Positions 1-29,801 of a DNA stretch of 29,801 nucleotides are shown piece after piece. Made by a program: the position numbers and the translations under genes. Source of the stretch: a virus. Its lineage: Duplodnaviria > Caudoviricetes. The stretch is taken from positions 1 to 29,801 of the IMG/VR virus record IMGVR_UViG_3300020460_000042, one strand, 5' to 3'. How positions within the stretch are numbered: position 1 is the stretch's first letter; each line of letters starts with the position of its first letter. The notes beneath the pieces were generated by a model that ran no database searches, had not been told where the DNA came from, and saw only the letters and a list, made by a program, of their open reading frames with translations.

Positions 1-1010
1 GGAGCAAGGACCAGCTGATGCAGCTGGCCGACCACCTAACCACCTGCACCCCGGAGGTGTTCCGCTTCCTCTATGACGACGTCCAGGAGGCCCTGAGCGC
101 TGGCATACGTACCGCTGTGACCGCGCCCCCTGGCCACACCCTGGTGGTGTGCGACCTGTCCAGTATCGAGTCCCGGGTACTGGGCTGGCTGGCAGGCTGC
201 AACGAGATAAACGCCGCATTCGCCGCCGGGCAGGACACGTACCGCAGGTTCGCTTCGCGTTACTACTCGGTGCCCTACGAACAAGTGACCAAGCCCCAGC
301 GCACCTTCTGCAAGCCCCCTGTACTCGGCTGCGGCTACATGCTGGGCGCCAGGGGGCTGGTCAAGTACGCCGCCGGCATGGGCGTCGAGATGGGGGAAGA
401 AGAAGCCCAAGGCCTAGTAGACGTGTGGCGCTCCACTCATCATGAGGTAAGCACCATGTGGATTGCTTGGGACCGGGGTCTCAGGGACCTCGTAACAGGC
501 GACATCCGATACTACACCTGGACAGCTACTACAGAGGCCTCGATTTACGCTTACCGCCAGGGGCCCTTCCTGGTGCTGCGGCTACCTAGCGGACGCCGCA
601 TTTTCTACAACGCCCCCGAGATAAAATCCTACGGCGACCTGAGACGTGAGGGAGTCCCGCTAGTCATGGGGGATGACTCGTGGGAAAACATCCTCTATAG
701 GGGACGAGAGCAAGGTGGTCACGGTTGGGGGCTCATTCGAACTCACGCCGGCAAGTGGGTTGAGAACGTGGTTCAGGCTATCGCTCGTGATGTGCTGCGC
801 GACAACGTCCTGCTGGCCTCGAAGAAGTGGATGCCCTGGGCCACCCTGGTGGGCCACGTGCATGACGAGGGCGTCTGGCTTTGTCGTGAGGAGGACGCCG
901 AGAAGACATTGACAACAGCTGCTGCTATGATGTCAGCGCCTTTGCCCTGGGCGCCAGGGCTGTTGTTAGATGCGGAAGGGGTAATCACCCACAGGTACTT
1001 TAAAGCATGA
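1..1010 (+). CDS. polA: Family A DNA polymerase, C-terminal part (5' truncated)
   Basis: Motif A (VCDLSSIE), motif B (RTFCKPPVLGCGY), motif C (GHVHDE) and ENVVQAIARD. The frame is open to the window edge. Confidence 0.93.
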   Translation, partial: SKDQLMQLADHLTTCTPEVFRFLYDDVQEALSAGIRTAVTAPPGHTLVVCDLSSIESRVLGWLAGCNEINAAFAAGQDTYRRFASRYYSVPYEQVTKPQRTFCKPPVLGCGYMLGARGLVKYAAGMGVEMGEEEAQGLVDVWRSTHHEVSTMWIAWDRGLRDLVTGDIRYYTWTATTEASIYAYRQGPFLVLRLPSGRRIFYNAPEIKSYGDLRREGVPLVMGDDSWENILYRGREQGGHGWGLIRTHAGKWVENVVQAIARDVLRDNVLLASKKWMPWATLVGHVHDEGVWLCREEDAEKTLTTAAAMMSAPLPWAPGLLLDAEGVITHRYFKA

Positions 1011-1276
1011 AACTCAACCTACCGAAAATTGACTCAGACCGTAAAACTTTTCTGCAACAGAGTATGACCAACACGGTCATGTTTAACGGGCTGATGAGCG
1101 ACTTAAGCCGCCTCGGCTATGACGAGCAACTGGCGCAGATGCAGTACCTCTTAGAACTGGAGATGGCGCGCGAAGAGGGCGCCCGGCGTTCTATCGCAAA
1201 GCGCATACACGGTCGCACCGGGACATTACGCGCATTCCTAGAGTGGGAACTGGTCGAGGAGACCATACGTGCGTGA
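1007..1276 (+). CDS. Hypothetical protein, 89 aa
   Basis: ATGA overlap with the polA stop and overlap with the next gene; no recognisable motif. Confidence 0.75.
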   Translation: MKLNLPKIDSDRKTFLQQSMTNTVMFNGLMSDLSRLGYDEQLAQMQYLLELEMAREEGARRSIAKRIHGRTGTLRAFLEWELVEETIRA

Positions 1277-1727
1277 GTCCAAGATTGAGCGCGAGGTGTG
1301 CGCCTACGCCCGCGACAAGTACGACATGCTGACCCGCAAGCTGTCAGGCGAACTGACCTCCGGGTGGCCTGACCGCATGGTGCTGACACCCGAGGGATAC
1401 ATCTGCTTTATAGAGTTCAAACAGCAAGACCAAGACCTGAGACCGATACAACAAAGAATGTGCGAGAAGCTTGTCCGCTACGGGTTTGACGTGTTTGTGT
1501 GCGACGACCTGGAACAGGGGAAGCGACTCATCGACTACGTAAATGACGCGAACCTCATTAAGGAAGTGATACACGGACATGACCCCGCCATCGAATCTCC
1601 TAAGTTCATCTTGCCTGCACGACTATCAGACCCGAGCCATCCATCACACCGTCCAGAATCCCCAAGCAATGCTGTGGCTGGACATGGGCCTGGGCAAGAC
1701 CGTGGTGACCCTCTCCGCAATCGCTGA
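1269..1727 (+). CDS. VRR-NUC domain nuclease (PD-(D/E)xK)
   Basis: RESKIE start, GWPDR and FIEFK motifs; typical position just before an SNF2 helicase; GAGGAG upstream of the GTG. Confidence 0.88.
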   Translation: MRESKIEREVCAYARDKYDMLTRKLSGELTSGWPDRMVLTPEGYICFIEFKQQDQDLRPIQQRMCEKLVRYGFDVFVCDDLEQGKRLIDYVNDANLIKEVIHGHDPAIESPKFILPARLSDPSHPSHRPESPSNAVAGHGPGQDRGDPLRNR

Positions 1728-3006
1728 GAAACTCGACCGGCTGCAAATCAACGGGGCCCTGGTACTAGCCCCGCTCCGCGTCATACAGTCGGTGTGGCGC
1801 CAGGAGGCAGCCAAGTGGGACCACACCCAGGGCCTCCGCTTTAGTCTCATCAGTGGCACGCGTGACGCCCGCACCAGGGCCGCGCTGCTGCCGGCAGATG
1901 TATACCTCTGCAATTATGAGAACCTCACGTGGCTGGCAGACTGCTGGACCCAGTATTACCTCGCACGTGGTAAGTATCTGCCCGTCAACATGGTGGTGTT
2001 CGATGAGGTAACGAAGGTCAAGAACTCGACCGCGAAGCGGCACGAGGCCCTGCAGCGACTGACGCCGTTTATGCCTCACCGGGTGGGGCTCACCGGCACC
2101 CCGGCCAGCAATGGATACCAGGACCTGTTTGGGCAGTACCTCGCGGTGGACAGCGGCCAGCGCCTTGGCACCAGTAAAACTGCCTACTATCAGAGGTTCT
2201 TTAAAGCGGCCAACCCGATGTCCCCCTTTGGCAAGCAGGTCCCGGTGCCGACTGCAGAGGAGACTATCGAAGCCCTGGTCGCAGACATCACCATCCAGAT
2301 GGCAGCTGAAGATTACATCGACCTGCCCGAGGTGATGGAGAATGAACTCTACGTAGACCTGCCATCCGGGCTCGCCAAGAAGTACAAGAAACTTGAAGAC
2401 GAGATGTGGATAGAGTTGGACAGCGGCCACGAGATTGAATCTTTCAACGCTGCCGCCCTCACCAACAGGTGCCTGCAGTTTAGCCAGGGCGCGATGTACC
2501 TCCACCCCGGCGCCCGCCAGTGGGAGAAGGTCCACGACCTGAAGCTGGAAGCGCTAGACTCAGTGCTTAATGAGGCCAACGGCAAACCGGTGCTGGTTGC
2601 CATTGAATTTCAACACGACGCAGAACGGATACTGGACAAGCACCCTGGTATGGTGTGGGTCAAGTCTGGCATGTCCGGCGCCAAGTTCAATGCCACCCTG
2701 GACGCCTGGGAGGAGGGCCGGCTGCCCGGCATCATCGTCCACCCCGCGAGCGCCGGCCACGGCATTGACAGACTGAAGAACGGACCCGTGGATGACGTGG
2801 TCTGGTTCGGTCACACTTGGAGTTTAGACCAATACGAACAGTTCATCGCCCGCGTGAAGCGTCAGGGTCGCACCCGTCCCATACGGATGCACCACATCAC
2901 CACGCGTGGCACCATTGAAGAAGCCCAACGAATAGCCCTTGCGCATAAGGCCCGAGGGCAGAACAAGCTAAAGGAGGCCCTTAATGAGTACAGACGTGCA
3001 GCCTGA
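1579..3006 (+). CDS. SNF2-family (SF2) DNA helicase
   Basis: LHDYQ Q-motif, DMGLGKT Walker A, VVFDE Walker B, LTGTP, SAGHGID and QFIARVKRQG. Confidence 0.93.
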   Translation: MTPPSNLLSSSCLHDYQTRAIHHTVQNPQAMLWLDMGLGKTVVTLSAIAEKLDRLQINGALVLAPLRVIQSVWRQEAAKWDHTQGLRFSLISGTRDARTRAALLPADVYLCNYENLTWLADCWTQYYLARGKYLPVNMVVFDEVTKVKNSTAKRHEALQRLTPFMPHRVGLTGTPASNGYQDLFGQYLAVDSGQRLGTSKTAYYQRFFKAANPMSPFGKQVPVPTAEETIEALVADITIQMAAEDYIDLPEVMENELYVDLPSGLAKKYKKLEDEMWIELDSGHEIESFNAAALTNRCLQFSQGAMYLHPGARQWEKVHDLKLEALDSVLNEANGKPVLVAIEFQHDAERILDKHPGMVWVKSGMSGAKFNATLDAWEEGRLPGIIVHPASAGHGIDRLKNGPVDDVVWFGHTWSLDQYEQFIARVKRQGRTRPIRMHHITTRGTIEEAQRIALAHKARGQNKLKEALNEYRRAA

Positions 3007-3831: not shown

Positions 3832-5850
3832 TTACGGCCCAAAGAGGCCTTCGGCAACAACCGGCGCTGCTATCCCAGAACCTCCGCCGCCTATAATCGT
3901 GCCCCACATATTTGAAGGAGGCATGCCCCTGCCTGCCTGGGCCGCTTGTTGCGGGGTCATGTACGAACGAAACGGCAGCCCTGGAGACAGCAGGGCTTGT
4001 GTGACTCGGTCGGCCACTGCTGGATCGGTCATTGGGTGCCGGGGCTGTAATAACGTTTGCAGCCACGTACGGGGGCTGACCAGTTGGGCGGGTGTCATGT
4101 CGTCGGCAACGTTAAGGGTATCCGAAGTTGTGGTCCGATTGGCCAATCGGACTGCGTCTGCTTGGTTTCTTGCGGTACGGTTAACCTCGTTTAGAAGCCG
4201 GTTAGCGCCATCGCGTCCGAAAACAATGGCCAGACGGTCTTGGAACTCTTCTGCTACAAAAGCGTTGTCCGTACCCACATTCTGGCCAGAACGCTTCATG
4301 CGCAACCGGTTCTGCATTTCTTTCACTACGCCGAGGGTGAACGCCTCCCGCTCGGAACGGTTCATGTTCGGCCACACCATATAAAGCCTCTCGGCATCCA
4401 TTGCCGTCTTGCCTCTATCGAAGATGTTGCGGCCCAGCTGTACAGCTTCTTCTAAAGCTTCAAAGCCGGCGTATGTTGCGCGCGCCTCTTTTAACGCAGG
4501 GTTGGCTTCATCTACCACTCGGTTGAAGCGGTCGCGCGCCATACGGTATTCAAAAAACTTCTCAGTTCCGGGCACGTCACCGCCGAGGGCGCGCAACCCG
4601 CGCTGGATGTGGTCTAGTTCCTCCCAAGTGGGCATATGCTCCCATTCATATATGGGGTCGCCGTACTCATCAGTGCCCTGTTTCTTCAACAACACCCGGG
4701 GCTTCTTGTTGGTCTTGCGCCGGATAGAGTCCTGACCCCGAATCAGCGCCTGCTTGACGTCCTTATCTCGCAACAGCGCCACTATCTCGGGAATTTCAGA
4801 CGGGCTAGCCTCAAAGGCGTAGGCCGCCTTGTAGCCAGCTTCAGCTGCCCTGCTTTGCTGCTTGTTGAGGGCGTCCAGAGTCATTTCATAGGAACCGCGC
4901 CTACCCCCTAAGTCACTGACGGTGTTTTGCAATGCCCGACCCTGGGCGTTCTGGTGAGATTGGGCAAGTTCCTGCGCCATAACGCGACCTGTCGGGGTGC
5001 CTGCGGCCCTACCTACCGCCAGCGGTTGGAACTCGGGGAGCATACCCGGAACAACGCCGGAGCCGCGTTCGCTCAATTCTGCATAGATGTCGGGCACCGT
5101 CTTGTTCGTTCGGTCTAGGACCCCTTTCAACACCTCCCCTGCCGCTTCGTCGGGGGTCTGCCACATTGGTCTGGCCGCGTCCATAACCGCGTTGCCGACT
5201 TTGCTTCCTAAGTGAGTGGCCGCCTGGGATATTGGGCCGCCCACCATGCCTGCAGCGGCGCCTATACCGGTGTCGGTCGCTTGTTCGGAGAAAGAGCCCT
5301 CCGCACGCCCGAGGCCCTCCGCCCCGCCAACCAAGCCGCCGCCGGCAATACTGCGGGTGAGGGGTGTGCTGTTTGGCAGGAAACGGGGAACAGCCCCGCG
5401 CGCCGCAAGCCCCATCGTTGGGATAGTGCCTAGTATTTGGTTGGCTACATTTGCCGTTGGATTCTCTTCGGCATATTGGGCCTGGGCGGCACGTTCATGA
5501 TCACGCGTAGTTGTGTACGCGTCTACCGCTGCATCCAAACCCTCCCCGGAGAAGAGTTCAGTCATGAACGGCGCCACCCCGGCTATCTCGTCAGTAGCGC
5601 CTGCGAACATGCCCTGCCCAACTGAGCGGGCTGCAGAACGGGACGACGCCTCCCCACCGGTGTAGTCGGGGGTCGGCACCTGTAAAGGTGCCACACGTGG
5701 CGCCATGCCAGCCCCGCGAAATTGGGCAGGCTCTCCCATCTTGAGTTTTAACAGGGTCGTAAGGTCATCAATGGCAGAGTAGTTGTCAGTGTCGTAGGCT
5801 ACCTTTAAAGCCTCTTTAAGTTGGTCTGCTGTAACTTCGCTTAATCTCAT
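3832..5850 (-). CDS. Large internal virion/DNA ejection protein, 672 aa
   Basis: Last gene of the virion operon; Gly/Ala-rich hydrophobic N-half and helical C-half, as in podovirus ejection proteins. Confidence 0.65.
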   Translation of the reverse strand: MRLSEVTADQLKEALKVAYDTDNYSAIDDLTTLLKLKMGEPAQFRGAGMAPRVAPLQVPTPDYTGGEASSRSAARSVGQGMFAGATDEIAGVAPFMTELFSGEGLDAAVDAYTTTRDHERAAQAQYAEENPTANVANQILGTIPTMGLAARGAVPRFLPNSTPLTRSIAGGGLVGGAEGLGRAEGSFSEQATDTGIGAAAGMVGGPISQAATHLGSKVGNAVMDAARPMWQTPDEAAGEVLKGVLDRTNKTVPDIYAELSERGSGVVPGMLPEFQPLAVGRAAGTPTGRVMAQELAQSHQNAQGRALQNTVSDLGGRRGSYEMTLDALNKQQSRAAEAGYKAAYAFEASPSEIPEIVALLRDKDVKQALIRGQDSIRRKTNKKPRVLLKKQGTDEYGDPIYEWEHMPTWEELDHIQRGLRALGGDVPGTEKFFEYRMARDRFNRVVDEANPALKEARATYAGFEALEEAVQLGRNIFDRGKTAMDAERLYMVWPNMNRSEREAFTLGVVKEMQNRLRMKRSGQNVGTDNAFVAEEFQDRLAIVFGRDGANRLLNEVNRTARNQADAVRLANRTTTSDTLNVADDMTPAQLVSPRTWLQTLLQPRHPMTDPAVADRVTQALLSPGLPFRSYMTPQQAAQAGRGMPPSNMWGTIIGGGGSGIAAPVVAEGLFGP

Positions 5851-8596: not shown

Positions 8597-10170
8597 CTGC
8601 GCGCACCTTCGCGGTACTTCATCGAGAAGCCCTGCAGCGCCCAGTCCACGTCGGTGTTGGACTCGAAGGCCACGCATGGGTAGCGCCCGGTCATGCGGAA
8701 CGTCACCTTGCGGTCCTGTTCGGGGTCGAAGTCCTTCTCCACTTGCCACGTAACGGGCCCGTTCGGGTCGTCTTGCGTACCCACGTACACTTTAAAGACG
8801 CCCCCGGTCGCCCGTGGCCAGAGTTCGGTGATGGTCATCTTCCGCTCGCCGTTGGGCACCCGCAGGCCCAATCTCTCAATACGCGAGGTGCGATTGACGC
8901 CGTCGAACTGGTTAGTCTTCTCCGCTCGGAAGATGGGGCCGCCTGTAACGCCAGCACCGGAGTCATCACCGCCAAGTAGCAGCTGACCCCCAACAATATT
9001 GAATGAGCGCTCGTCCCAAGATTGCGTTTCGACGTCCCAATTGTTAGCGGAAGACGTCCAGGTCTCCGTGGACAAACCAGTTATATCTATGCCATCCGCA
9101 AGCGAGATACATCCTGCCGGAAGGTCGCGGACGCCCCAAGTGTTATCGTTTACGTTCCACACCAGGGCGAGATTGTTGTAGGTGCTGCCCTGGCCAGGGA
9201 ACGCGATCCAGACCTCGTTCAACAACCGGTGGACTTGCACCTGGGCGAACCCGTAGTTGGACTCGTCCAGCTGGTTGAAAAGGAAGCGGCGGTTACGGCG
9301 GTCGATAATGCTACGCACCGTTTGGCCGTCAGTCATGACCACATCCTGGTCAGTCACATAGATATGGTTGCCTCGGAAGGCGCCAACCGCCCTTCTAGAT
9401 AACACCCCAGCCGCCCGGCTGATGGGCCGGAACGACCAGATAAGGTCGCCACCGATGTATTGCATCGCGATGGCGTCACGTTCGGTGTAAAGCATCGCCT
9501 GCTCGCGTAACCCCAAACCCGCGAGGAGGGTGGACCCGACCGCGTCTCCGAGGTCGAACTCCCCCGCCTGCTTGGTGGCGTCGGTTATGTCCCAAGACGT
9601 CGGCAAGCCCCCAGCTGCGGCCTCGTCGGACCACTTCACGCGGAAGGGGCGACGGGTGCCCGTGTCCGTTATGTCTAGCGCTATCAAGAACCCCCTGTGC
9701 GCGAATATAGAGCCGGCCCGGCAGTTGGAGTTCCAACCGGTCAGGATGGCTGCGGGGGTGCCTGTGTCCAAAGCCCACGAGTGGGGCTGGTCCACCCCGT
9801 TGTTAAAAACGAGGTTTTGATTCAAGAACGCCCAGGTGAATATGTCAGACCGGGTGTTTGTAAGGGCAACCGAGGGGCTAATGTCGTGCTGGGTCGTGCC
9901 GTCAAACGCGTACAGCTTCGGGGTCGCGCCAGACAACGTCGCATGCGCCCAATAGTGTTGGGTGTTGCTGCTCACCGGCATGATGGCTAGAACATCATCG
10001 ACGTTGGTGTTGTCACTACCGACATCATGGCCCGGAAAGGACACAGCAGAGCCGTCCCGGAACCTTACATTCTGGGCAGAAGTCCAGGCGTTAGGTGGGG
10101 CCTCGTGAGGCGGGGCGTCAGCCACGACCCCGACCTCACCAGCCCCGTTGAACTCTAGCCACTGTTGCAT
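8593..10170 (-). CDS. Tail nozzle/head-closure protein (P22 gp10-like), 525 aa
   Basis: NAWTSAQNVRF, RVKWSD and a Trp/beta-strand-rich, propeller-like sequence; synteny. Confidence 0.72.
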   Translation of the reverse strand: MQQWLEFNGAGEVGVVADAPPHEAPPNAWTSAQNVRFRDGSAVSFPGHDVGSDNTNVDDVLAIMPVSSNTQHYWAHATLSGATPKLYAFDGTTQHDISPSVALTNTRSDIFTWAFLNQNLVFNNGVDQPHSWALDTGTPAAILTGWNSNCRAGSIFAHRGFLIALDITDTGTRRPFRVKWSDEAAAGGLPTSWDITDATKQAGEFDLGDAVGSTLLAGLGLREQAMLYTERDAIAMQYIGGDLIWSFRPISRAAGVLSRRAVGAFRGNHIYVTDQDVVMTDGQTVRSIIDRRNRRFLFNQLDESNYGFAQVQVHRLLNEVWIAFPGQGSTYNNLALVWNVNDNTWGVRDLPAGCISLADGIDITGLSTETWTSSANNWDVETQSWDERSFNIVGGQLLLGGDDSGAGVTGGPIFRAEKTNQFDGVNRTSRIERLGLRVPNGERKMTITELWPRATGGVFKVYVGTQDDPNGPVTWQVEKDFDPEQDRKVTFRMTGRYPCVAFESNTDVDWALQGFSMKYREGARR

Positions 10171-10886: not shown

Positions 10887-10897
10887 GCTTTAAAGCC

Positions 10898-11691: not shown

Positions 11692-11704
11692 GCTTTAAAG
11701 CCTC

Positions 11705-16122: not shown

Positions 16123-16138
16123 CTTGACTTCCTTTAAA

Positions 16139-18858: not shown

Positions 18859-18871
18859 CAAAGGGCTCCTT

Positions 18872-19117: not shown

Positions 19118-19137
19118 CGAACTCTCCTGCTTACTGT

Positions 19138-19198
19138 GTTTAAAGCTACTGTATCAGTAGTTGTGTTGTCAACCTAGTGATGCTACAGTATCACCCCA
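19138..19198. promoter_or_regulatory. Candidate overlapping divergent sigma70-type promoters with palindromes
   Basis: + strand: TTGTGT(19161)-N17-TACAGT(19184) with an extended TG. - strand: TTGACA(19172-19167)-N18-TAGCTT. Palindromes CTACTG-tat-CAGTAG and GTGATGCT-ac-AGTATCAC. Confidence 0.55.
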
Positions 19199-19215
19199 TC
19201 TAAGGAGTATCCGCC

Positions 19216-19431
19216 ATGAGCCACACCCCAGAAACCCTCGACAACCTCGTTACCTTCGAGACCATCACAGAACATATGTACCGGGCCATCGAAATCGAGG
19301 TGGGCGTGGCCGCCGAGTTCAAGCCTGAAACTGAGGCAGAACTCGACAAGGCATTCGGTCTTATCGCCAAAGCTCTAGGGCTGCCTGAAGACCAGCCGGC
19401 GTCGTATCTGCCGGACGGTTACCTCGGTTGA
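19216..19431 (+). CDS. Small acidic protein antisense to the virion operon, 71 aa
   Basis: SD TAAGGAG 8 nt upstream, candidate promoter, and GC3-rich codons matching the genome. Confidence 0.65.
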   Translation: MSHTPETLDNLVTFETITEHMYRAIEIEVGVAAEFKPETEAELDKAFGLIAKALGLPEDQPASYLPDGYLG

Positions 19432-20956: not shown

Positions 20957-21411
20957 ATCACCGTTCTAGTCAAAGGAATAAAAGACGCATAGCATTGATG
21001 ACGGGTCTCCACATGCCAGCGGTCGTGGGGTAGTTTGGTCAACACCTTGATGTGGGCCACATTCTTGCCCGTAGGACGGTCCTGGTCAGCGCGCACGGGT
21101 TCCTGGGTGATGTTCTCCCAAGGTATCCGGTAGAAGCTGTTGTCCGTGTCCTTCCAATAAATGGCCAAGTATTTGAACTCGCACGCCCGCACCTTATCGA
21201 AGGTGATGGTGGCAAGGCGCGCAACACCGGAGTCATGGAGTTCGGAGTCTATGTGGACGTTGACCGCGACCGGCTGAAGCTTGCCATCCCAAGCGCCGAG
21301 GTTGGGCCCCGCGATAACAACGAACGAGACCGCTGCAACAGCGAACAGAATGCTGGCCATAGACAGACGGTTTAAAGCCTCCAGGGCTCGACTTTCTAGG
21401 GTCTGGCTCAA
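20947..21411 (-). CDS. Membrane-anchored protein (start probably TTG 21411 or ATG 21360)
   Basis: In-frame TTG overlaps the upstream TGA; TM segment ILFAVAAVSFVVIAG followed by a soluble domain with two Cys. Confidence 0.62.
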   Translation of the reverse strand: MSQTLESRALEALNRLSMASILFAVAAVSFVVIAGPNLGAWDGKLQPVAVNVHIDSELHDSGVARLATITFDKVRACEFKYLAIYWKDTDNSFYRIPWENITQEPVRADQDRPTGKNVAHIKVLTKLPHDRWHVETRHQCYASFIPLTRTVIWP

Positions 21412-21644
21412 GAGTTCGCCCCCACCACGCCGCTCAGCACCTGGATGAGGACCGCCATCACGATGGCCCAGGTGACCTTGCGAAGGCCTGCCTGAATCTG
21501 GGATATCTGGCTCCCCTGTTCGGTCAAAATGACCTCCATCCGGGTCAGACGGTCCCGGGCTTCCGGGGAACCAGCTGCCACTTGTTCCAGAAGGGAGACC
21601 CGTTCGCGCAGCTGGTAGAACAACTCTGTATCTGGTTCGGTCAC
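21408..21644 (-). CDS. Coiled-coil protein with C-terminal TM segment (holin/XhlA-like), 78 aa
   Basis: RVSLLE...RLTRME heptads, then TM segment VTWAIVMAVLIQVLSGVV; SD AAGGTG. Confidence 0.6.
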   Translation of the reverse strand: MTEPDTELFYQLRERVSLLEQVAAGSPEARDRLTRMEVILTEQGSQISQIQAGLRKVTWAIVMAVLIQVLSGVVGANS

Positions 21645-21657
21645 CCATCAGACACCT

Positions 21658-23874
21658 TTAGTCGGCGCTGCCCATGTCCCACGGGGAGGGCTTTTGGTTG
21701 AGCCCTTGACCGTGGATATCGACAGCTGCGTCCACCTCCATCTTCGTATAATCCAGGTCGAGGTCTTGGGAGTGCTGCAACGCGGCCTGGGCCATCTTCT
21801 CGCGCTCGCGGGCGTCCTTTAAAGCGGATTCCATACGTTTGGTAAGTTCCCTGTTCTGCTCAATCATGGCTTGCGCCTGCAGCATCATTTGTTGGGAAGC
21901 CTGCATCTGTGCTTGCTGGGCTTCAACTTGCTGTTGCTGCTCCATAGCCTCTTGCTGCTTCTGCTGCATCGCCTGCTGGGCTTCTGGGCTCTTCGGGTCT
22001 TGCCAGTAGGGCGAGGGGTCGCCCACGTGTGAGGAGCGGGTGAACTCCGCGAGGGTGTTGTAGATGTTGTCCATCGTGACCAGGATGCCGTCACCGCCCA
22101 TCTCCCACACAGTCTGCTGCTGTTGCAGCGTCATAGCGAGGCCCTGGGCCTTCTTCATCCGGTCACTGTGCGATAGCGTGGTCTTGACGGTGGCGCCAGT
22201 GCGGGCTCTCCACTCTGCCGGGTTGACCTCCTGCCACTGCTTACGGGCCTGGAAGTGTATTGGCGTCTTGCGGTAGCGCTGCAGGTTCATCCGCACCTTC
22301 ATCAGCGTGCCCTTCGACAGCGTATTGGCGAACAGCTTGACGATGAGCCCGGTTAACTCTTCCTTCGCGGACATCAGCCGCTCTAGGCCATGCGCGGTAT
22401 CGCCCGCGATAGCGTTTGCGACCGCTGCTGTATCGGGAGAGACGCCCGCACGCCCGGTACGGACGTTATCGAGCCACTCCAGCTGCCGATACCCCAGTTC
22501 GCCAATCTGTGGCGCCACCAGGGGCTCAATCATGCCGGGCGCCTTCTGCCGAACCACGCCGCCTGGGCGCGTCGTCAGCAGGTCGTCCAGGTTGACCTGA
22601 CCCGCGACCACCGCTAGGCGGGCGTTGTTCTGGTGCGAGAGGTTGTCCTGGATAGCGCGCACCAGTTCGGTCTTCTGGTCCTGAATCTCGGACACTTTGT
22701 CATAAAGACTGCGGCCCCAGAACTTGTGCGTCATCAGGAACGGTGTGCAGCCCACAAACGGATTACACGGCACATGCTCCCAACCCATCAGCACGTAGGT
22801 GCTATCGCCAGCCACGTGGCACTGGATAAGTTCCGCGTAGCCGTCCCGGTCGGTGTCAACGTGTGCGTAGCACTCCGCGACCTTGACCCGCCGGGTGGCG
22901 CGGTCACTCGCGTCATAGCCGAAGTCTCGCTCATCTTCCAGGCTGCGGCGCTCCTCCCGCTCCCCGGTGGTGTCCACGCTGTAGGTCGGCAGGTCCCGGA
23001 CAAGGTCTTCCGGCCAGCCCTCACTGATGAGGTCGGACTCAGTCGCAAGCCTCTCGTGAGCGGTGAAACGCGCGTCGTCCAGGTTGATACTGGTGTGGTC
23101 CCGGTTCACCCGGAACTCTTCCGGCGGCATGGGCACCACCTTCACGCCACCGTTGCGTGTCACGCGACGCACGGTGATGTCGTAGGTGAATACAGGCTGC
23201 CCGTCCATCGTGACAGCCGCGCCCCCGGCCTCGTGCGGCGTCATCTCGGTCGGCACCACGATGCTGCCGTCCTCGGGCTGCAACAGCTGGGCAGCCTCCA
23301 TCTCTGTGAGCCCTTCGTAGGTCTCATAACAGACACTGGTGGACTCGTCCCAATAAATCTTGCCGATACCGTTCTTCTGCATCAGCGCGTCCTTTACCAC
23401 GCTGTAGAAGTAAGTGAACCCGTCGTTCTCTTTAAAGATGACGTGTTCGCAGGCGTCGGTCTCCAGTTGCGCGGCCTCCTCGTCCTCCTCAGACTGGGCG
23501 TCGAACAGCACCACGTTCTCAGTGTTGACGAGGGCCTCGATACACTGCGGCAGGGTCCACTCGATAACGTCAGCCACGTCGGTACTGACAGCCTGCGAGC
23601 GCCCCTTCGGCGCCGACCTCATGCGGCCTTCGTAGTACCGCATCGCCAGGATACGGTTCTCGGAGAGTTCGCCGCTATGCTCGCTACCGGAGTTCTGCAA
23701 CTCGGTTTCGACGACCGACAGGATCTCCCTGTCGGTCATGGGCTCCCTCTCGCGCTCGTCCTGAAGCACGCCCCCGGTGCCGGTGGTGGCGGGGTCACTA
23801 GTGACCAGTTCGGTCGCACCTTCCTCGGACCCGTCATCGTCCGAATATGGGTCGTCGTAAAGTTCAGTGGCCAT
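21658..23874 (-). CDS. Portal protein (P22-like), 738 aa
   Basis: RSQAVSTDVADVIEW, KDALMQKNGIGK, PPEEF and a Q-rich barrel-like C-terminus; downstream of terL. Confidence 0.9.
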   Translation of the reverse strand: MATELYDDPYSDDDGSEEGATELVTSDPATTGTGGVLQDEREREPMTDREILSVVETELQNSGSEHSGELSENRILAMRYYEGRMRSAPKGRSQAVSTDVADVIEWTLPQCIEALVNTENVVLFDAQSEEDEEAAQLETDACEHVIFKENDGFTYFYSVVKDALMQKNGIGKIYWDESTSVCYETYEGLTEMEAAQLLQPEDGSIVVPTEMTPHEAGGAAVTMDGQPVFTYDITVRRVTRNGGVKVVPMPPEEFRVNRDHTSINLDDARFTAHERLATESDLISEGWPEDLVRDLPTYSVDTTGEREERRSLEDERDFGYDASDRATRRVKVAECYAHVDTDRDGYAELIQCHVAGDSTYVLMGWEHVPCNPFVGCTPFLMTHKFWGRSLYDKVSEIQDQKTELVRAIQDNLSHQNNARLAVVAGQVNLDDLLTTRPGGVVRQKAPGMIEPLVAPQIGELGYRQLEWLDNVRTGRAGVSPDTAAVANAIAGDTAHGLERLMSAKEELTGLIVKLFANTLSKGTLMKVRMNLQRYRKTPIHFQARKQWQEVNPAEWRARTGATVKTTLSHSDRMKKAQGLAMTLQQQQTVWEMGGDGILVTMDNIYNTLAEFTRSSHVGDPSPYWQDPKSPEAQQAMQQKQQEAMEQQQQVEAQQAQMQASQQMMLQAQAMIEQNRELTKRMESALKDAREREKMAQAALQHSQDLDLDYTKMEVDAAVDIHGQGLNQKPSPWDMGSAD

Positions 23875-23885
23875 GCTTTAAAGCC

Positions 23886-24134
23886 TCACGTAATGGCGTC
23901 ATTCTCGGGCGGCGGTGCGCCCGCCACAGGGTAACCGGCCAGGGACATGTCGTAGGTGGCGCTGGACCCGTCAGCGGCGTCAGTGAAGCCCTGGTCCCAG
24001 GCTGCCTCCTCTGGGGTTCCATTGCCGTCGTGGGGGTTGTCGGTTGCGGCGCCGCCGGCGCGCTCGTCAGCAGCGCCCTCGGCATAGCAGCGGCGCAGCT
24101 TGGCATCGCGTAGGTACTCGGTACGGTCGGGCAT
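23886..24134 (-). CDS. Rmf/CrpP-like small protein, 82 aa (start revised to ATG 24134)
   Basis: YAEGAAD...G...NPH...AWDQGF pattern; GGAG upstream of the ATG. Confidence 0.55.
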   Translation of the reverse strand: MPDRTEYLRDAKLRRCYAEGAADERAGGAATDNPHDGNGTPEEAAWDQGFTDAADGSSATYDMSLAGYPVAGAPPPENDAIT

Positions 24135-24139
24135 TGGGG

Positions 24140-25762
24140 TCAGTCTCCATAATCGATGGTGTCGTTGAACCCGCACCAGCTGGACTTTCGGCGGTCCTGC
24201 AGGGTCGCCTCACGGACATACGGACCATCGAAATGGTCGTCCTTTTCGGCATGCAGGATGGCCTGAGACACGTTGCCACGGGACTCATACTCGTGGGCAG
24301 CGTACACGATTGCATCCCCAATGTCAGGTGACCGCCCCAGGCGGGTCAGTTTCATCAGGTCCTCTTTGGCCTCGACCTGCACCCCTCGGGCGGTCACACG
24401 GTAGTGCGGCGCGCACAGGTCGGCCTTCACCTCGCTGCCCGGTGGGAGCGCTATCGGGTCCGGGTTCTGGGGCGCCAGCAACTCTCGCATCCGCCAGTAA
24501 AGCGCGGAGCGGAGGTTCGCCATCTTCAGTCGACCGGTCTTGTCAGTGTAGTGGCTGGCAGCGCTGCCGTGTATCGCGGTCACGTCCATGCCCAGGCCCT
24601 CCAGGTGGTCTACCACCGAGGTGCCCACCCCGACAACATCGACCATCACCGGGGCACCATTGCGGAGGTGCTGCACCACCAGGGCGGCGCCTGCTGGCCC
24701 GTCCGGCACAGCGGCGCCCGGAGTCTCGATGGGCTTCGAGAACCAGCTGCCGTGCCTCGGGACCAGGACCATCTGGTCCTTCCCACCGCGCGCCGGGTCC
24801 ACGCCCATCGCGGACATGACCCCGTGCGGCTCATTCTCACGCAGCCGCCAGCGGCGCTGTGCGGCGTCCACCCAGGCGGAGGGTATGACCTGCCACTCGT
24901 GGTCGTCCTGGCCCGCTTTAAAGTCACCGTCTCGCATCTGCGACCGGAGCGGTTCGGGCAGGGCCTCCAGCTGGTCAGCGTAGCCCGTCCGCATCAGGAA
25001 GGGGTTGTCTTCGACCGAGGCCGGAATGAAGGTGCGGGAACGGGGCAGCACCCAGCGGGTCTTGCCGCTGGCACTGGTGACCTTCACCGGGCAGCCATCC
25101 TCCACGATGGTATCCTTCCCGTCCTCGGTGATGTAGTAGACCAGTTCGCCCGGTGCGACCTCACCATAGAGCGGGTGTTCATCGTCCAGCCAGGGCGCCC
25201 AGTATTTCAGCACCCACAGCCCCTCGGGTGTGGTGGGCGGGTTGCCTGTCGCGACCACCCTGCAGCGCTGCTTGGGGTCCACCGACCGGTTCCAGGTCTG
25301 CAGGTAGCGGTACTGGAACTCGGTAAACTGGGTCACCTCGTCGTAGATGATGAGGTCATGCGGGCGGCCCTGGTACTTCTGCTCGTCGCCGGGGTTCGGC
25401 ATCGACCCGTACTCCAGCTGCCGCCCCCCGAATCGCCATATCTTCTCACCGCCGTGGTATTGGTCCTTTCCGCCCAGGAGTTCGGTCAGCCGGTCAGTGA
25501 TGCCGGTCAGCTGCGTTGCCTCGCGGCGGTAGACGATGCTGACCTGATGCTCCTCCAGCGCGAGGCCGCACACAAAATCTGTCTTGCCGCCGCCTGCGGC
25601 GCCACCGTAGAACAGTTCATCAGCCTTGCAGTTCCAGGCGTCCAGCTGCGGCCCCGGGAGGGGCGCCCAGGTCATGATGTCGTCCAGCTGGGCCTGCTCC
25701 TCTGGGCTCAGCTTCGCCAGGAGCGCCATCGCCTCGTCGACGGTCTGCGGCATCTGGGTCAC
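24140..25762 (-). CDS. terL: Terminase large subunit (start GTG 25762 or ATG 25753)
   Basis: YGGAAGGGKT Walker A, IIYDE Walker B, ATGNP, DNPFL, and nuclease motifs MGVDPA and SPDIGDA. Confidence 0.93.
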   Translation of the reverse strand: MTQMPQTVDEAMALLAKLSPEEQAQLDDIMTWAPLPGPQLDAWNCKADELFYGGAAGGGKTDFVCGLALEEHQVSIVYRREATQLTGITDRLTELLGGKDQYHGGEKIWRFGGRQLEYGSMPNPGDEQKYQGRPHDLIIYDEVTQFTEFQYRYLQTWNRSVDPKQRCRVVATGNPPTTPEGLWVLKYWAPWLDDEHPLYGEVAPGELVYYITEDGKDTIVEDGCPVKVTSASGKTRWVLPRSRTFIPASVEDNPFLMRTGYADQLEALPEPLRSQMRDGDFKAGQDDHEWQVIPSAWVDAAQRRWRLRENEPHGVMSAMGVDPARGGKDQMVLVPRHGSWFSKPIETPGAAVPDGPAGAALVVQHLRNGAPVMVDVVGVGTSVVDHLEGLGMDVTAIHGSAASHYTDKTGRLKMANLRSALYWRMRELLAPQNPDPIALPPGSEVKADLCAPHYRVTARGVQVEAKEDLMKLTRLGRSPDIGDAIVYAAHEYESRGNVSQAILHAEKDDHFDGPYVREATLQDRRKSSWCGFNDTIDYGD

Positions 25763-25917
25763 GCGTGGAAACTCCCGCTGCCTTCGCAGACCGGGCAATC
25801 CCCGCCGCCGTCGCACTCGGGGCAGTACCCATCGTCAGTGGCCCCGTCACCTTCGCACTTGGGGCAGTCCCCGCTGCCATCGCACTCCCAGCAGTCCTCG
25901 TGGTCTTCGGTACTCAT
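25759..25917 (-). CDS. DnaJ-type zinc-finger miniprotein, 52 aa (not in the ORF track)
   Basis: MSTEDHEDCWECDGSGDCPKCEGDGATDDGYCPECDGGGDCPVCEGSGSFHA has four CxxCxGxG motifs; ATGA and GTGA overlaps on both sides. Confidence 0.85.
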   Translation of the reverse strand: MSTEDHEDCWECDGSGDCPKCEGDGATDDGYCPECDGGGDCPVCEGSGSFHA

Positions 25918-26624
25918 GAGATTCTCTGCCCCACCCGTTGCCCCTTCAGTATCCGCCCCACCTCGGCCCCAACCCGGGCGCGTAGTGGCGCTTTAAAGGC
26001 GTCGCTGTGCCCCACTTTGGTGAGACCGGGCAGCAGCGCCTCCAGGTCGATGTTGTGCACGTGAGGCCTGCCCTTTGTCTCCATCCCCCAGCGCCCGGCT
26101 GCGCCCCAGGGGTGCTTCCAGAACCAGTTCCAGGGCAGCACCCGTAGCGCCAGGGACGCCAGCACAGCGGCATCGTGGCTGGCGTGGAAGCACCACACGT
26201 GGCGGGCCCTGATGTCGGCGTCCACGCGGATGGCCGGGTTGAGGAGCACCGCGTGCGTGAGCGCCACGCCGGGCTTGCGAGACAGCATGCGGATGATGTT
26301 GCACCCGTGGCTGTGGCCCACAGCGCTGACCATCACCTCGGGCTCATACTCGACCTGCTGCCGGATGTAGTCGGCAGCCGCGCCGGCCACGTTGTCTGCG
26401 GTCACCCTCGCGTCAATCAGGAACTCTTTCTTGCGGTCCCAATCGATGACGCGTCTGCCATCCTCGGCCAGCCAGGGGTCCAGCTGGTCCAGCGTAGACG
26501 CGCCCGCATCCCCCACATTGAAGCCGTGGAACGTGTGCACGTCGTGGGCCCGCTTCAGCGGCACCACGTTCGGATGTATCCAGGTCATCCCCTCCTCACC
26601 GGTCACGTTCTCCCTCCAGGTCAT
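25914..26624 (-). CDS. Alpha/beta-fold hydrolase (esterase/lipase-like)
   Basis: FHGFN oxyanion motif, VGHSHG nucleophile elbow, LLNPA, ASHD and C-terminal GHS. Confidence 0.8.
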   Translation of the reverse strand: MTWRENVTGEEGMTWIHPNVVPLKRAHDVHTFHGFNVGDAGASTLDQLDPWLAEDGRRVIDWDRKKEFLIDARVTADNVAGAAADYIRQQVEYEPEVMVSAVGHSHGCNIIRMLSRKPGVALTHAVLLNPAIRVDADIRARHVWCFHASHDAAVLASLALRVLPWNWFWKHPWGAAGRWGMETKGRPHVHNIDLEALLPGLTKVGHSDAFKAPLRARVGAEVGRILKGQRVGQRIS

Positions 26625-26838
26625 CTAGGTAGTCGGTCATGTGATGCAGGGCTGCGTCCCAGCCCTCCCGATAGGCGCGAGAGAACAGCCAAGAGTGCAG
26701 GGGCAACGTCCACTCGCTCATCTTGGCGAGCCCAGCGTCCCATTCCCTCTGCCGGATGGCGCCGCACTTACGGCACCAGTGGACCACACCGGGGCCTCTC
26801 ACGATACGGTCGTAGCCGTCATGGGTGCACTGTTTCAC
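26596..26838 (-). CDS. Hypothetical protein with a possible small Zn knuckle, 80 aa
   Basis: CTH...WCRKCG; ATGA coupling to the upstream gene. Confidence 0.65.
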   Translation of the reverse strand: MKQCTHDGYDRIVRGPGVVHWCRKCGAIRQREWDAGLAKMSEWTLPLHSWLFSRAYREGWDAALHHMTDYLDDLEGERDR

Positions 26839-27113
26839 GTGAAACCCCGTGGAAACTTCGCCGGGATTCGCCGCCGGTGGTCATTCTCAATCTCCTCAAG
26901 CCGCTCTTTCGGCAGGCAGGCCACACGCGCAACCATAGGGGTGCCCTCAAAATGGTCAGAATACTGACCCTGCAACTCCTCAACCCTGGCGCTGCATTCC
27001 TCCTCGCTCTGATACCACCGCTCTGGCTGTTCCACCATCACGTTGCAGTTCACAAAACGTGGGCCTTGGGGCGTCATCACCGCCAAGCACACGGCCATTA
27101 GAATCTTGAACAT
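26835..27113 (-). CDS. Small Cys-containing protein with a hydrophobic N-terminus, 92 aa
   Basis: MFKILMAVCL...C...YQSEEEC...C pattern. Confidence 0.65.
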   Translation of the reverse strand: MFKILMAVCLAVMTPQGPRFVNCNVMVEQPERWYQSEEECSARVEELQGQYSDHFEGTPMVARVACLPKERLEEIENDHRRRIPAKFPRGFT

Positions 27114-27226
27114 GTCGGCACCACCCAGCTGCGAAGCTTTGTGTGAAAGCAGCGAACGGGTCGGAGTGACATTCGGCAGCCCTTCCCCCTATTCAGAAGG
27201 GTCAACCGGTGAGGACGACCCGTCCG

Positions 27227-27616
27227 CTACTGCAGAAACCCTAGCACAGGTGATTCAGCTGCACCAACGCTCTCCGCTTCAGCGCCCCTCATGATGGCGA
27301 GCAGTTTGGTGGCCAGCACCAGTTTGTCGCTGTTCGGGCCCTTTAAAGGCTCGCCATCGGCGCCGGCTATCTCGACCGCCTTGAGGTCCGGCAACACCTT
27401 GGACAACAGCCTCAGCTGAATGTCCATCACCTTGCCGAGCGCGGCTGTGCGGTCCTTTGACAACGGCACCCAGGTCACTTGCTTTGTGGCCGGGTCGGTC
27501 ACGGGCTCCCAGCCTGAGAGCAGCACCTGTGTGCAGTGTTCGATGCGGCTCAGTATCCGCTCACCATCTACACGTTCTCTGAGTGCCTCACGCACCCTGG
27601 TTGCTGCGCTGTTCAT
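27227..27616 (-). CDS. terS: Probable terminase small subunit
   Basis: LLSKVLPDLKAVEIAGADGEPL motif; strong SD AAAGGAG; first gene of the packaging block. Confidence 0.72.
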   Translation of the reverse strand: MNSAATRVREALRERVDGERILSRIEHCTQVLLSGWEPVTDPATKQVTWVPLSKDRTAALGKVMDIQLRLLSKVLPDLKAVEIAGADGEPLKGPNSDKLVLATKLLAIMRGAEAESVGAAESPVLGFLQ

Positions 27617-27634
27617 CTAATCTCCTTTGAATCA

Positions 27635-27814
27635 GGGTGAAGTCACGAAGTCACGACTTCACCATTGCGCCGTAAGGAATTCTCGGTCACAAAACACACA
27701 CCGAAAACTCTCTCACACCAATTTCCCATTTTACGTGACTTCGTGACTTCACCCGGTGCATCACATTGATTGCCCTGAAGAAAAGCGAAGTCATGAGCCA
27801 CAGCGCTCATGACT
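27635..27814. repeat. 21-bp inverted repeat and GAAGTCA iterations, candidate replication origin/regulatory site
   Basis: GGGTGAAGTCACGAAGTCACG (27635-27655) and its exact reverse complement (27734-27754); hairpin AGTCATGAGC-N6-GCTCATGACT (27789-27814). Confidence 0.8.
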
Positions 27815-27846
27815 GCAGAGCCACTTTGGTGACTGCACTTCTCCTC

Positions 27847-29801
27847 TCACGAGAGGAGAAGCCAGTCCCGCGATTCTCTTAGCCCCCACTCCTCCACATT
27901 CCGCAGGGCAACAAGCCTCACCTTGTTGGGTTGCCTCGCTCCCGCTCTCGGAGGATTCACCCTCCGGTGCGGCATCGCCAGCTGGTCAAGAGCGGACAGC
28001 AGCCTGCGTTCAGTCATCGGCCTACCGCGCACATCCTCTCCCGCGAGAATCAGGTCCTCCCGCACCCTCGCTAGCAACTCACGCACATCCACCACATCCG
28101 GCAGCTGGGCGGTCTCCACCACCCTCAGAACCGACCGCGCAGCGTCCGTCAGACTCGACTCCATCACCTCCGCCTTCCACGCGGTCACCGGTGGTGGCGC
28201 CTTCGGATTGAACTCGCTCACGTCGAAACCGTACAGGAAGCCGGCCACAGCCTGAGCCCCGGTGTGGCCGCCCAGGTTCGTCTGTGGCTCCTCAAGCCAC
28301 CGCCACATAGCAGCAGCTGTCTCCTCCCGCATGCGCCGCCCAGGCGCCCACAGCATCGCACACCGTCTATCGTCCTGCTCCAGCACCATCGCGTTCCGGT
28401 GGTTGGTCATCGCCAGCACCTGAACGATGTTGGGTATCTCAATCGCGTTCATGTTCTTGAGAACAATCGACAGCCGCATGGGAGGCGCCGCGCCGTAGGG
28501 CTTCAGGTTGTTGTAGACCACGCTCGCGCGTGCCCTGTCCCAATCGCTGCTGGCCAACTCCTCAATCTCCAGCACCTTCGCGTGCTGGACATCGGGGTCG
28601 AAGTTGCTGTCTAGCACGTTCTGCCGCACCGACTTGATGTTGTCGCTCCCCAGGGCCGCGTAGACGGGCTGCAGGGCGAACCCCTTGCCACTGCCCTGGT
28701 TCCCGCCCAGGACCAGCATGTGGTTGATTTTCTGCTCCGGGAACTGGACCATGTGGGCCAGATAGGAGATGAGGTGCAGACGCTCCACCTCGGGCAGCCT
28801 GAGCCCGTCACGCAGATGCAGCAGCCAGGGCTTGATGTCGGACGCGGTCGCGTCCAGCTTCGGGTTCAGGCCACGCACAGGCGCCCAGGTGTTCAGCCTC
28901 GGCTCACCGGTGGTGGTGTCGCGCGGGAAGCGCCAGCCGCCCATCGTACGGTCGGCCTCATCGAACAGCGGGCTGTGTGGATTGATGGGCAGGTAGGTCA
29001 TCTGCGACACGCGCGGCATCAGACCGTCGTTGATGAACCGCTCGCGAGCCTCAGTGCCGTGCATGTTGCCGAAGGCTGTGGGCGTCAGGAAGCAATGCTC
29101 CACGCTATCCCAAACCCTGTCCTGGCGCGCCACGTAGACATAGCGTGCGGCGAGTCCCTTGCCCTGCTGCGCCTCCCGCCTCGCCTGCTCCTGCTCCGCG
29201 TCATGGCCCTGGCGCACACGCTTCAGTGTGTTACGAAGTGGCACCAGTTTCATGCCCACAGCCTGCGCGAGGGCGCCCAGCACGAGGTCCTCCTCGTGCG
29301 GCATCAGCGACATGATGGCGATGTTGCTAAGCGCCGCGTTGACCTTGTCGTACTGGCCCGGCAGCAGGCCCTGCACGTGCGCCATCGCTGCTTTAAAGGG
29401 GTCAACCTCAACCGCAGCCTCCTGCGGCTGTACCACGGGAAGCGGAACAGAGGCCCCGCTTTGTTCCGTTTGTGGCATCTCGGTGTGGTACGCCACCCCA
29501 GTGTCCGCGAACGGGTTCAGCGGGGTGCAGGGCATCACTGCGTAGGCCCAGAGCCACTGCGCCGCGCTGTCGCCTCCCTCTGGCCGCCTGCTATCCGCCA
29601 TCGCCACATCCATGCACCAGGGGTTGTCCACCATCGCCTGCAGCACGCACTGCGGCGGCAGCTTCATGTGGTGCAGCGCTGTGGCGACACCATAGATAGC
29701 CTCCGACCGGGTGTCGTACTCCCCAAGGTCGCCATCGAACCAGAATGGCTGGACCTTGGGCGGCAGCCTCAACTCGACCCAGAAAGGTGGGTTGAACTGC
29801 G
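27847..29801 (-). CDS. Primase-helicase with C-terminal SF3 ATPase (DUF5906-like), 5' truncated
   Basis: KINHMLVLGGNQGSGKG Walker A, LEIEE Walker B, MTNH motif C and DDRR Arg finger; TRSEA primase-C-like helix. The frame is open to the window end. Confidence 0.85.
   Translation of the reverse strand, partial: QFNPPFWVELRLPPKVQPFWFDGDLGEYDTRSEAIYGVATALHHMKLPPQCVLQAMVDNPWCMDVAMADSRRPEGGDSAAQWLWAYAVMPCTPLNPFADTGVAYHTEMPQTEQSGASVPLPVVQPQEAAVEVDPFKAAMAHVQGLLPGQYDKVNAALSNIAIMSLMPHEEDLVLGALAQAVGMKLVPLRNTLKRVRQGHDAEQEQARREAQQGKGLAARYVYVARQDRVWDSVEHCFLTPTAFGNMHGTEARERFINDGLMPRVSQMTYLPINPHSPLFDEADRTMGGWRFPRDTTTGEPRLNTWAPVRGLNPKLDATASDIKPWLLHLRDGLRLPEVERLHLISYLAHMVQFPEQKINHMLVLGGNQGSGKGFALQPVYAALGSDNIKSVRQNVLDSNFDPDVQHAKVLEIEELASSDWDRARASVVYNNLKPYGAAPPMRLSIVLKNMNAIEIPNIVQVLAMTNHRNAMVLEQDDRRCAMLWAPGRRMREETAAAMWRWLEEPQTNLGGHTGAQAVAGFLYGFDVSEFNPKAPPPVTAWKAEVMESSLTDAARSVLRVVETAQLPDVVDVRELLARVREDLILAGEDVRGRPMTERRLLSALDQLAMPHRRVNPPRAGARQPNKVRLVALRNVEEWGLRESRDWLLLS

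Follow-up and report, generated by a model that had tools for sequence, protein, structure and literature searches.

We analysed the IMG/VR virus record IMGVR_UViG_3300020460_000042, a stretch of 29,801 bp (59.8% G+C; hereafter the window) that represents a podovirus fragment, and observed that it carries 18 exact copies of the eight-letter palindrome CTTTAAAG. This word is very probably read by a SprT-like zinc-ribbon protein of the phage, because its spelling co-varies with a residue of the ribbon. The loci compared here show, at the level of sequence, a one-residue correspondence in which a ribbon Arg goes with G-TTTAAA-C words and a Tyr goes with C-TTTAAA-G words. In the reading that we prefer, to which we give a probability of roughly 0.5, CTTTAAAG would be the address of the phage's own SprT/Spartan-like predicted protease, which would be tethered to the DNA at these sites.

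Selection on the palindrome at the DNA level

The 18 copies (the first at 998, the last at 29391) had already been counted in an earlier note written from the letters of the window alone, and they stand far above the 0.14 expected under an order-2 Markov model; the runner-up palindromic octamer has 7 occurrences. The tally of TTTAAA hexamers in that note was also borne out: of the 21 in the window, 18 are CTTTAAAG, two are GTTTAAAG (19138 and 21370) and the remaining one is ATTTAAAC (7825).

With 33-34 genes called in the window, 13 of the 18 copies fell inside coding sequences (CDSs), on both coding strands and in two frames (10 as xxC TTT AAA Gxx and three as TTA AAG), so that the new gene calls agree with the earlier description. 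The other five are intergenic; intergenic DNA makes up 3% of the window. As had been claimed, all 10 Phe-Lys-[AVGE] tripeptides are encoded with CTTTAAAG, whereas TTC or AAG appears in 6 of the 7 remaining Phe-Lys pairs. In the window as a whole, TTT accounts for 38% of the Phe codons and AAA for 28% of the Lys codons. The tripeptides are themselves overrepresented (10 vs 3.5). When synonymous codons were shuffled within genes 1000 times, the CDSs held 0.61 copies (maximum 4), as against the 13 observed. Selection on CTTTAAAG at the DNA level is thus supported by its occurrence on both strands, in two frames and between genes, and by the codon shuffles, and the proposal of the earlier note that the word is a selected mark at the level of the nucleic acid came through a test that could have overturned it. 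In its strong over-representation as a palindromic octamer and in the selection on its DNA, CTTTAAAG resembles iterated palindromes of the HIP1 type.

The copies are spaced more regularly than random (mean gap 1670, coefficient of variation 0.51, P=0.002). Seven of the 18 lie at most 30 nt upstream of a start codon, where 2.5% of positions qualify (P ~1e-7), and four of the copies stand exactly 1 nt 5' of an ATG. The flanks of the 18 copies showed no consensus beyond the eight bases. Absence from close relatives would also have spoken against the earlier proposal; three near-identical assemblies (L013, L031 and L032; 96-99.8% identity) retained the sites wherever they covered them, and the array is therefore not an assembly artefact.

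A SprT-like gene beyond the window end

L031, a contig from a metagenome, shares 3 kb with the window on the minus strand (26789..29790) at 97.5% nucleotide identity, and extends 3.4 kb past the window end. This extension contains a Prim-Pol N-terminus, six more copies of CTTTAAAG, an early promoter and a SprT-like gene (L031:354-962, minus strand), which lies about 2.5-3 kb past window base 29801. A homolog is the first early gene of G001, a complete 42-kb phage with 38 copies of CTTTAAAG and a P22-like head module.

The L031 protein has 202 residues, with an HExxH motif and a C-terminal CxxC...C ribbon at about residues 146-196. It is 40% identical to the G001 homolog (E 1e-41), which shares both motifs and matches phrog_6361 at E 3e-37, and 41% identical to Tallboi gp46 over 201 residues, the ribbon included. 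The residues H85-E86-H89-H98 were invariant in all 42 aligned homologs, and the pattern HExxH...H was present in 96 of 96. The protein scored 21.5 bits (E 2e-4) against PF10263, under the SprT-like gathering cut-off of 25.6, and many homologs do carry this domain. A search of PDB sequences with the family alignment gave nothing at E up to 1.

The AlphaFold2 (AF2) model of the protein (pLDDT 89.6) matched human SPRTN, abylysin, selecase and Wss1 in fold. The best Foldseek match was human SPRTN (6MDW, E 2.2e-3), and the best VIA match was 6MDX (Z 8.2, root-mean-square deviation 3.5, 99 residues aligned), tied with abylysin and followed by Wss1 at Z 7.5 (5XBN being among the best structural matches). 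The ribbon is modelled as a beta-hairpin plus a helix, and a fold search with the ribbon alone gave generic, rubredoxin-like zinc ribbons (best Z 3.4) and, among the matches listed, no known sequence-specific DNA-binding domain. GenBank has 164 phage records with an annotated member of the family, and over 500 IMG/VR contigs carry one (522 matches). One phage has a second, weaker SprT-like match at L124:4670-5200 on the minus strand (E 3e-12).

A ribbon residue that goes with the spelling of the word

We compared the ribbon with the words of each locus, a word being taken as enriched at at least 2 copies and Poisson P<0.001. The Arg set comprised the best 80 of the 522 IMG/VR homolog loci together with Tallboi. 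The ribbon motif KKQxT-R-xxK had its Arg in 81 of 81 of these loci, of which 60 were enriched for GTTTAAAC, GTGTAAAC or ATTTAAAY and none for any C-word. The window phage (through L031) and the unrelated G001, both rich in CTTTAAAG, have Tyr at this Arg position.

The link between Tyr and the word was set down as a prediction first, and a back-translated Tyr pattern was then searched without using the word. This search gave 25 loci, 14 of them SprT-like, one of these being G001 itself. Eleven of the 13 new Tyr-type loci were rich in CTTTAAAG (3-24 copies, expected <=0.13), one was rich in CTGTAAAG, the C-form of GTGTAAAC (9 vs 0.03), and one was a 5-kb fragment with neither word. GTTTAAAC was found in none of the 13, and the 11 non-SprT chance matches of the pattern showed no enrichment. 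A scan of GTDB gave two loci, a chance match (L142) and one with the same C-terminal sequence as L130 (L143), which is not independent.

After clustering at 80% identity, a C-word was enriched in 11 of 12 Tyr clusters vs 0 of 40 Arg clusters. In an alignment of 42 word-bearing representatives, the Arg/Tyr column was the only perfect separator of the whole protein, the Tyr set having been picked by that residue and not by the word. A tree of the protease domain, made by a quick method from 52 representatives with the ribbon left out, required six Arg/Tyr changes, at least three of them forced by well-supported branches, and two Arg proteins from GTTTAAAC-bearing loci grouped with the window-type protein at 98% support. 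Independent Arg/Tyr pairs had the predicted word in 3 of 3 cases. A tree of the ribbon alone (46 columns) was too unresolved to separate point changes from domain swaps.

Named phages with the canonical Arg ribbon had G-words in 5 of 5 cases, namely Venkman (26 vs 0.72), Tallboi (26 vs 0.13), Bogota (9 vs 0.01), R5C (3 vs 0.01) and HeidiAbel, whose homolog is Bas97_0032 (4 vs 0.43). Two further named phages, LK3 and Dismas, encode the protease with a diverged ribbon, and neither has the word in the 14-16 kb stretches covered. In Bordetella phage LK3 (L145:9974-11022), the SprT-like gene with the diverged C-terminus adjoins an annotated antirestriction protein gene. Among the Arg loci, a Pro two residues before the Arg (L059, L067, L081, L092, L098) goes with ATTTAAAT/ATTTAAAC, and loci with a Cys immediately before it (L055, L077, L080, L110, L113) are enriched for none. 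Such variants may make further parts of the code readable.

The array in relatives of the window

The window has no close named phage (best portal identity 37%). Among 12 relatives of its major capsid protein (MCP; 40-44% identity), 11 loci had no copy of CTTTAAAG and one locus had a single copy, so the array is independent of the head genes. The four named phages with the closest helicases, DSL-LC05, LS06-2018-MD04, MZH0603 and fEV-1 (38-43 kb), had 1, 0, 3 and 1 copies, and the array is likewise independent of the replication genes. Five complete relatives without a SprT-like gene were also without the array, and a search of viral contigs with the SNF2 helicase gave no relative.

When IMG/VR was scanned with 16 bases of context, 10 loci were found, three of which were word-rich: a sister strain, the relative G002 (7 CTTTAAAG in 18.9 kb) and G001. 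Two near-complete Tyr-type genomes, G008 and G009, carry 16 and 15 copies from end to end, and neither has a structural gene in common with the window. One metagenome-assembled genome (MAG) that bins a Tyr-type contig had 22 CTTTAAAG, of which 16 lay on a pair of small contigs, the Tyr-type gene being on one of these, and six in the remaining 5.8 Mb; such binning does not prove the host.

Exonuclease, HD phosphatase and dATP/dGTP diphosphohydrolase genes follow one another in G001 (L028:14372-17079), where no purZ was seen; this row hints at modification of the nucleotide pool or of bases. The control phages have strongly enriched octamers of their own, which are non-palindromic: CCAGCTCC/GCTCCAGC in MZH0603 and L035, AGATTTGC in fEV-1 (34 vs 1.2), AAGGTTAG in LS06-2018-MD04, CCAGAGCC in L018, and also CCGTAGCC, CCGGGAGC and CAAACCTG. 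Loci with such Chi-like or nick-like words were L025, L026, L035, L024, L018, L104, L110 and L037.

Location of the sites

Of the 47 clusters that have two or more sites, 23 have one at most 300 bp upstream of the SprT-like gene, where 8.1 would be expected, and 27 have one within the gene itself (14.1 expected). SprT-like genes often spell the word at their two conserved Phe-Lys positions, which lie ~50 and 116 nt beyond HExxH. By eye, sites stood at operator-like positions, in the spacer, at the -10 or just upstream of the -35. Those in the -35/-10 spacer were seen in L121, L131 and L057, and those 7-11 bp upstream of the -35 in L031, L027, L141, L049 and L074; in L031, 11 bp separate the end of a CTTTAAAG copy from the -35, downstream of it, of the sole strong early promoter found. 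A blind genome-wide promoter test gave a weak result (11 of 92 promoter-like sites vs 5.1 expected). Even spacing was also observed in 8 of 10 further records.

The earlier note had proposed to look for conservation at orthologous positions. Comparison with G002 bore this out in part: the sites at the starts of the portal gene, the MCP gene and a small gene recur, whereas the intragenic sites of the portal and terL genes do not. This suggests that, for sites inside genes, density may matter more than place.

The asymmetric word of Tallboi is biased 19:7 to one strand. In the right arm of this phage (L116:34622-40655), five -10-like TAGACT elements are directly followed by GTTTACAC, and the SprT-like gene comes immediately after one of them. 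The cluster AZ preprint mentions 'repeat sequences' without giving data, and these elements may be what is meant. Two other features of early operons were seen in L031, in which (CA)n tracts (1830-1865 and 2285-2305) lie directly upstream of early-gene Shine-Dalgarno sites, one of them right after CTTTAAAG, and a 24-nt direct repeat precedes two consecutive early genes.

Genes and sites of the window

The window begins with a polA - VRR-NUC - SNF2 helicase module on the plus strand (3..3006). CTTTAAAG occupies the last codons of polA (998..1005; Y-F-K-A-stop), 1 nt 5' of the ATG of the next gene, and lies within the SNF2 helicase gene (2199..2206; F-F-K-A). Further copies lie within a 672-aa gene (5803..5810; A-L-K, TTA AAG) and a 525-aa virion gene (8790..8797; V-F-K-V).

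A head and tail module of the SU10/LUZ24 podovirus type (terL, portal, scaffold, MCP and adaptor) occupies the minus strand (11080..25816). Copies of the word stand between the Shine-Dalgarno site and the ATG of three genes, the tail-collar gene (10888..10895), the SU10-type adaptor gene (11693..11700) and the portal gene (23876..23883, where G002 has a site at the same position), and one lies immediately upstream of the MCP gene (17238..17245, with a G002 site at the same gene start). One copy is found within a 289-aa tail gene (14849..14856; S-F-K-G), one at the 3' end of a 114-aa gene upstream of the scaffold gene (18484..18491; S-F-K-E) and one within a 531-aa gene (19645..19652; P-F-K-E). 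The portal gene contains two (21817..21824, A-L-K with TTA AAG; 23430..23437, I-F-K-E), and terL one (24916..24923; D-F-K-A).

The intergenic copy 3' of the MCP gene (16132..16139) adjoins a terminator-like hairpin (16132-16165). The loop of this hairpin reads CTTTGAAG in the window (16148) and CTTTAAAG in L013, which thus has one additional copy; it is a site gained or lost through one substitution. GTTTAAAG, with one mismatch to CTTTAAAG, is weakly enriched, and its two copies, the intergenic one at 19138..19145 and that at 21370, are possibly decayed CTTTAAAG sites.

To the right of terL, the word lies within a 236-aa gene (25991..25998; A-F-K-A), a 129-aa gene (27341..27348; P-L-K, TTA AAG) and the DUF5906 primase-helicase gene on the minus strand (29391..29398; P-F-K-A), the last two sites being retained in L031.

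Proposed function and alternatives

As we picture it, the phage would make the SprT-like protein early, and, very probably, two C-terminal ribbons would grip one palindrome, with the Arg or Tyr of the hairpin touching the outer base pair. Sites on the gene's own early promoter would, quite probably, limit the level of the protein by negative autoregulation. The evenly spread sites would hold the intact predicted protease on phage DNA every 1-2 kb, and the protease, so loaded in cis, may well cut proteins that sit on or move along this DNA. Host DNA, with few sites, would be spared. Candidate targets, at the level of a guess, are host restriction or defence motors, silencers and protein-DNA adducts.

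SPRTN and Wss1 cut DNA-bound proteins, and ClpXP removes translocating HsdR. By analogy with these and with antirestriction by ArdC, we favour the clearing of host proteins from phage DNA as the function, with about an even chance of being right. Somewhat more tentatively, this could be a widespread form of phage self-marking, in which a ribbon-directed Spartan-like protease is given a genome-wide 8-bp address and proteins that land there are destroyed in cis; the address would have been re-spelled from G-C to C-G with each Arg-to-Tyr change, several times over, and this would keep the addresses of co-infecting phages apart.

Several observations weigh against the address reading. The candidate gene is absent from the window itself and is known from the 97.5%-identical L031. 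No tested word was enriched in 21 of the 81 Arg loci and in 1 of the 15 Tyr loci, two of the Arg loci have clustered, uneven sites, and the three independent pairs are too few for significance (p 0.25). Two neighbouring ribbon columns also co-vary with the word, and the code may therefore need more than one residue. G015/L210 is rich in CTTTAAAG (11 vs 0.02) and has a SprT-like gene, but with Gly at the key column, so Tyr there is not the sole route; in this protein a Tyr replaces the otherwise invariant Arg of the partner strand. The SPRTN-like antirestriction protein ArdC, as reported for it, works without its protease activity (PMC7213743).

Some further word-rich phages also weigh against it. 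A word-first (two-site) scan gave 62 loci, 58 of them chance and four word-rich; of these four, one has the gene with Gly at the key column, two are fragments in which no such gene was found, and the last is G012. G012 (40.3 kb, CheckV 97%) has 50 copies and no SprT match. Its assembly stops on either side within the early operon, at tandem repeats directly after a copy of the word, and the gene may therefore lie in the assembly gap. Tetranucleotide tandem arrays flank this break, each then followed by the word (L220:14-80, L222:3890-4000), and simple repeats like these also occur upstream of the SprT-like gene in L045. The assembled parts of the word-rich fragments G002, L184 and L197 do not contain the gene; that of G002 does not include the early region, and one of the two gene-less fragments from the word-first scan is ~80% identical to Tyr-type phages.

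The main rival to the address reading, and not exclusive with it, is that the same reader acts as a repressor on operator and stoperator-like sites. It would damp early promoters and block elongation, and so set lysogeny, a carrier state or timing, while the protease would be a switch (through cleavage of itself or of a regulator) or dispensable. We consider this possible and clearly less probable. In many loci, promoter-like elements in the operon to which the gene belongs have sites on them or next to them, but the genome-wide promoter test was weak. The seven window sites at gene starts, and the recurrence of such sites in G002 while those in CDSs turn over, fit a repressor, whereas the 13 intragenic window sites do not. 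The strand bias of Tallboi's asymmetric word also fits, but the window sites are palindromic and therefore without orientation. In the preprint on this family, Liebe, with a truncated gene, is described as forming clear plaques and Maureen as forming turbid ones (bioRxiv 10.1101/2025.05.26.655371), although three further changes distinguish these two phages. No tyrosine integrase was found among the called genes of G001 or, in a search with PF00589, in 5 of 5 Tyr-type records (two of them near complete). Also against a repressor, the catalytic residues are kept in 96 of 96 homologs.

It is unlikely that the word has a host reader (a nucleoid, segregation, uptake or restriction-modification protein), with the SprT-like gene just occurring alongside it or following the host group. 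The array of G012 without a detected gene would suit this, and the dominance of GTGTAAAC in actinobacterial phages points to some influence of the host on spelling. However, the spelling tracks the phage residue across at least three independent changes, G-words are shared by phages whose hosts are as different as E. coli, Dinoroseobacter, Methylophilales, Streptomyces and Arthrobacter, and the MAG described above was not enriched outside its two small contigs, with the same caution as to its host.

Two further explanations are very unlikely. The first is that the word is recognised by the replication module (primase, SNF2 helicase or PolA) and serves, for instance, for priming at Okazaki-like spacing. 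The 1-2 kb spacing agrees with this, and an SNF2 helicase is present in the window, G001, G008, G009 and G012; but the four named phages with closer SNF2 helicases (42-47%) lack both the array and the SprT-like gene, the primase catalytic domain varies among carriers (Prim-Pol in L031 and G002, DUF3854 in G001), and Tallboi has the array and no annotated SNF2 gene. The idea of NrS-1-type primase sites was dropped because carriers differ in the primase domain.

The second is that the word marks programmed nicks, as in T5 and phiKMV-like phages, or base modification in virion DNA, possibly by another enzyme. Programmed virion-DNA nick sites (T5, phiKMV, LUZ24-type) are asymmetric and on one strand, unlike CTTTAAAG. 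Carriers have unrelated head modules, and no methyltransferase or nickase was seen among the annotated genes of the incomplete window or of G001, although the even spacing and the relation of the window's head module to LUZ24-type phages would agree, and the proposed reader could serve as a targeting subunit. Least likely of all is an RNA-level or translation signal (a U/A-rich Shine-Dalgarno-ATG spacer or a processing site), to which the four copies 1 nt before an ATG point, since most copies lie mid-gene in two frames, the palindrome is exact and without flanking consensus, and the word co-varies with a zinc-ribbon residue. Of the factors offered in the earlier note, a phage factor thus gains a candidate in the SprT-like protein, while its nicking, modification and host-factor variants found no support.

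Comparison with known systems

A likely reader is here assigned to a genome-wide iterated palindrome, something that has been missing in research on HIP1. The residue-to-base rule can be tested by a single binding assay, and cultured carriers exist in HeidiAbel_Bas97 on E. coli and the cluster AZ phages on Arthrobacter. A function is suggested for a gene of 164 GenBank phage records and over 500 IMG/VR contigs, and a 45-residue zinc ribbon of switchable specificity would be of interest to protein engineers. If the reading is true, this would be the first sequence-addressed protease of the SPRTN/Wss1 class known to us.

The phage protein resembles SPRTN and Wss1 (SprT family, PF10263) in its zincin fold, in HExxH with a third His, and in a small zinc-binding domain after the protease domain. 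It differs in its PF10263 score, which is below the cut-off, and in a ribbon that is like generic rubredoxin-like ribbons only. SPRTN and Wss1 bind DNA by structure and not by sequence, and to our knowledge no cognate word array goes with them. The same family (phrog_6361) includes the SprT-like protease that Arthrobacter phages of cluster AZ and Microbacterium phages of EB/EH encode (Lizalica gp46); the AZ phages combine Arg with GTGTAAAC, and the window phage Tyr with CTTTAAAG. The likeness of this phage family to SPRTN is already in print (bioRxiv 10.1101/2025.05.26.655371; PMC12363180), and the main text of the former names no binding word. A sequence-specific SprT protein, the word array and the residue code were all missing from the literature searched, closed journals and preprint supplements aside. 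What appears new, as judged from the sequences compared, is that CTTTAAAG is tied to the SprT-like family through a residue change, with a prospective test.

Like ArdC of plasmid R388, the reader would be a mobile-element protein that joins DNA binding to a SPRTN-like metalloprotease domain; ArdC is described as an antirestriction protein that binds single-stranded DNA without sequence specificity through its N-terminal domain and has Glu as the third ligand (PMC7213743). HIP1 (GCGATCGC, cyanobacteria) is likewise an octameric palindrome, more than 100-fold enriched, selected both inside open reading frames and in the DNA separating them, and regularly spaced (PMC5861425, PMC4390886), but it is chromosomal and tied to methyltransferase sites, whereas CTTTAAAG appears to be a word of phage DNA alone, has an AT core and comes with a candidate reader and its residue code. 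The stoperator arrays of cluster A and MabJ mycobacteriophages share with the present array a phage protein and many dispersed sites on the phage's own genome; at least one of the stoperators overlaps an early promoter (PMC9934374), to which the copy upstream of the early -35 of L031 may correspond. As described in that paper, stoperators are asymmetric sites of 13-14 bp that are oriented to transcription, lie mostly between genes and bind the repressor of a temperate phage; the window has 8-bp palindromes, 13 of 18 of them in genes, and the reader would be a predicted protease-ribbon protein. The system thus shares the defining features of stoperators and of SPRTN each in part and neither as a whole: its layout is stoperator-like and its chemistry SPRTN-like.

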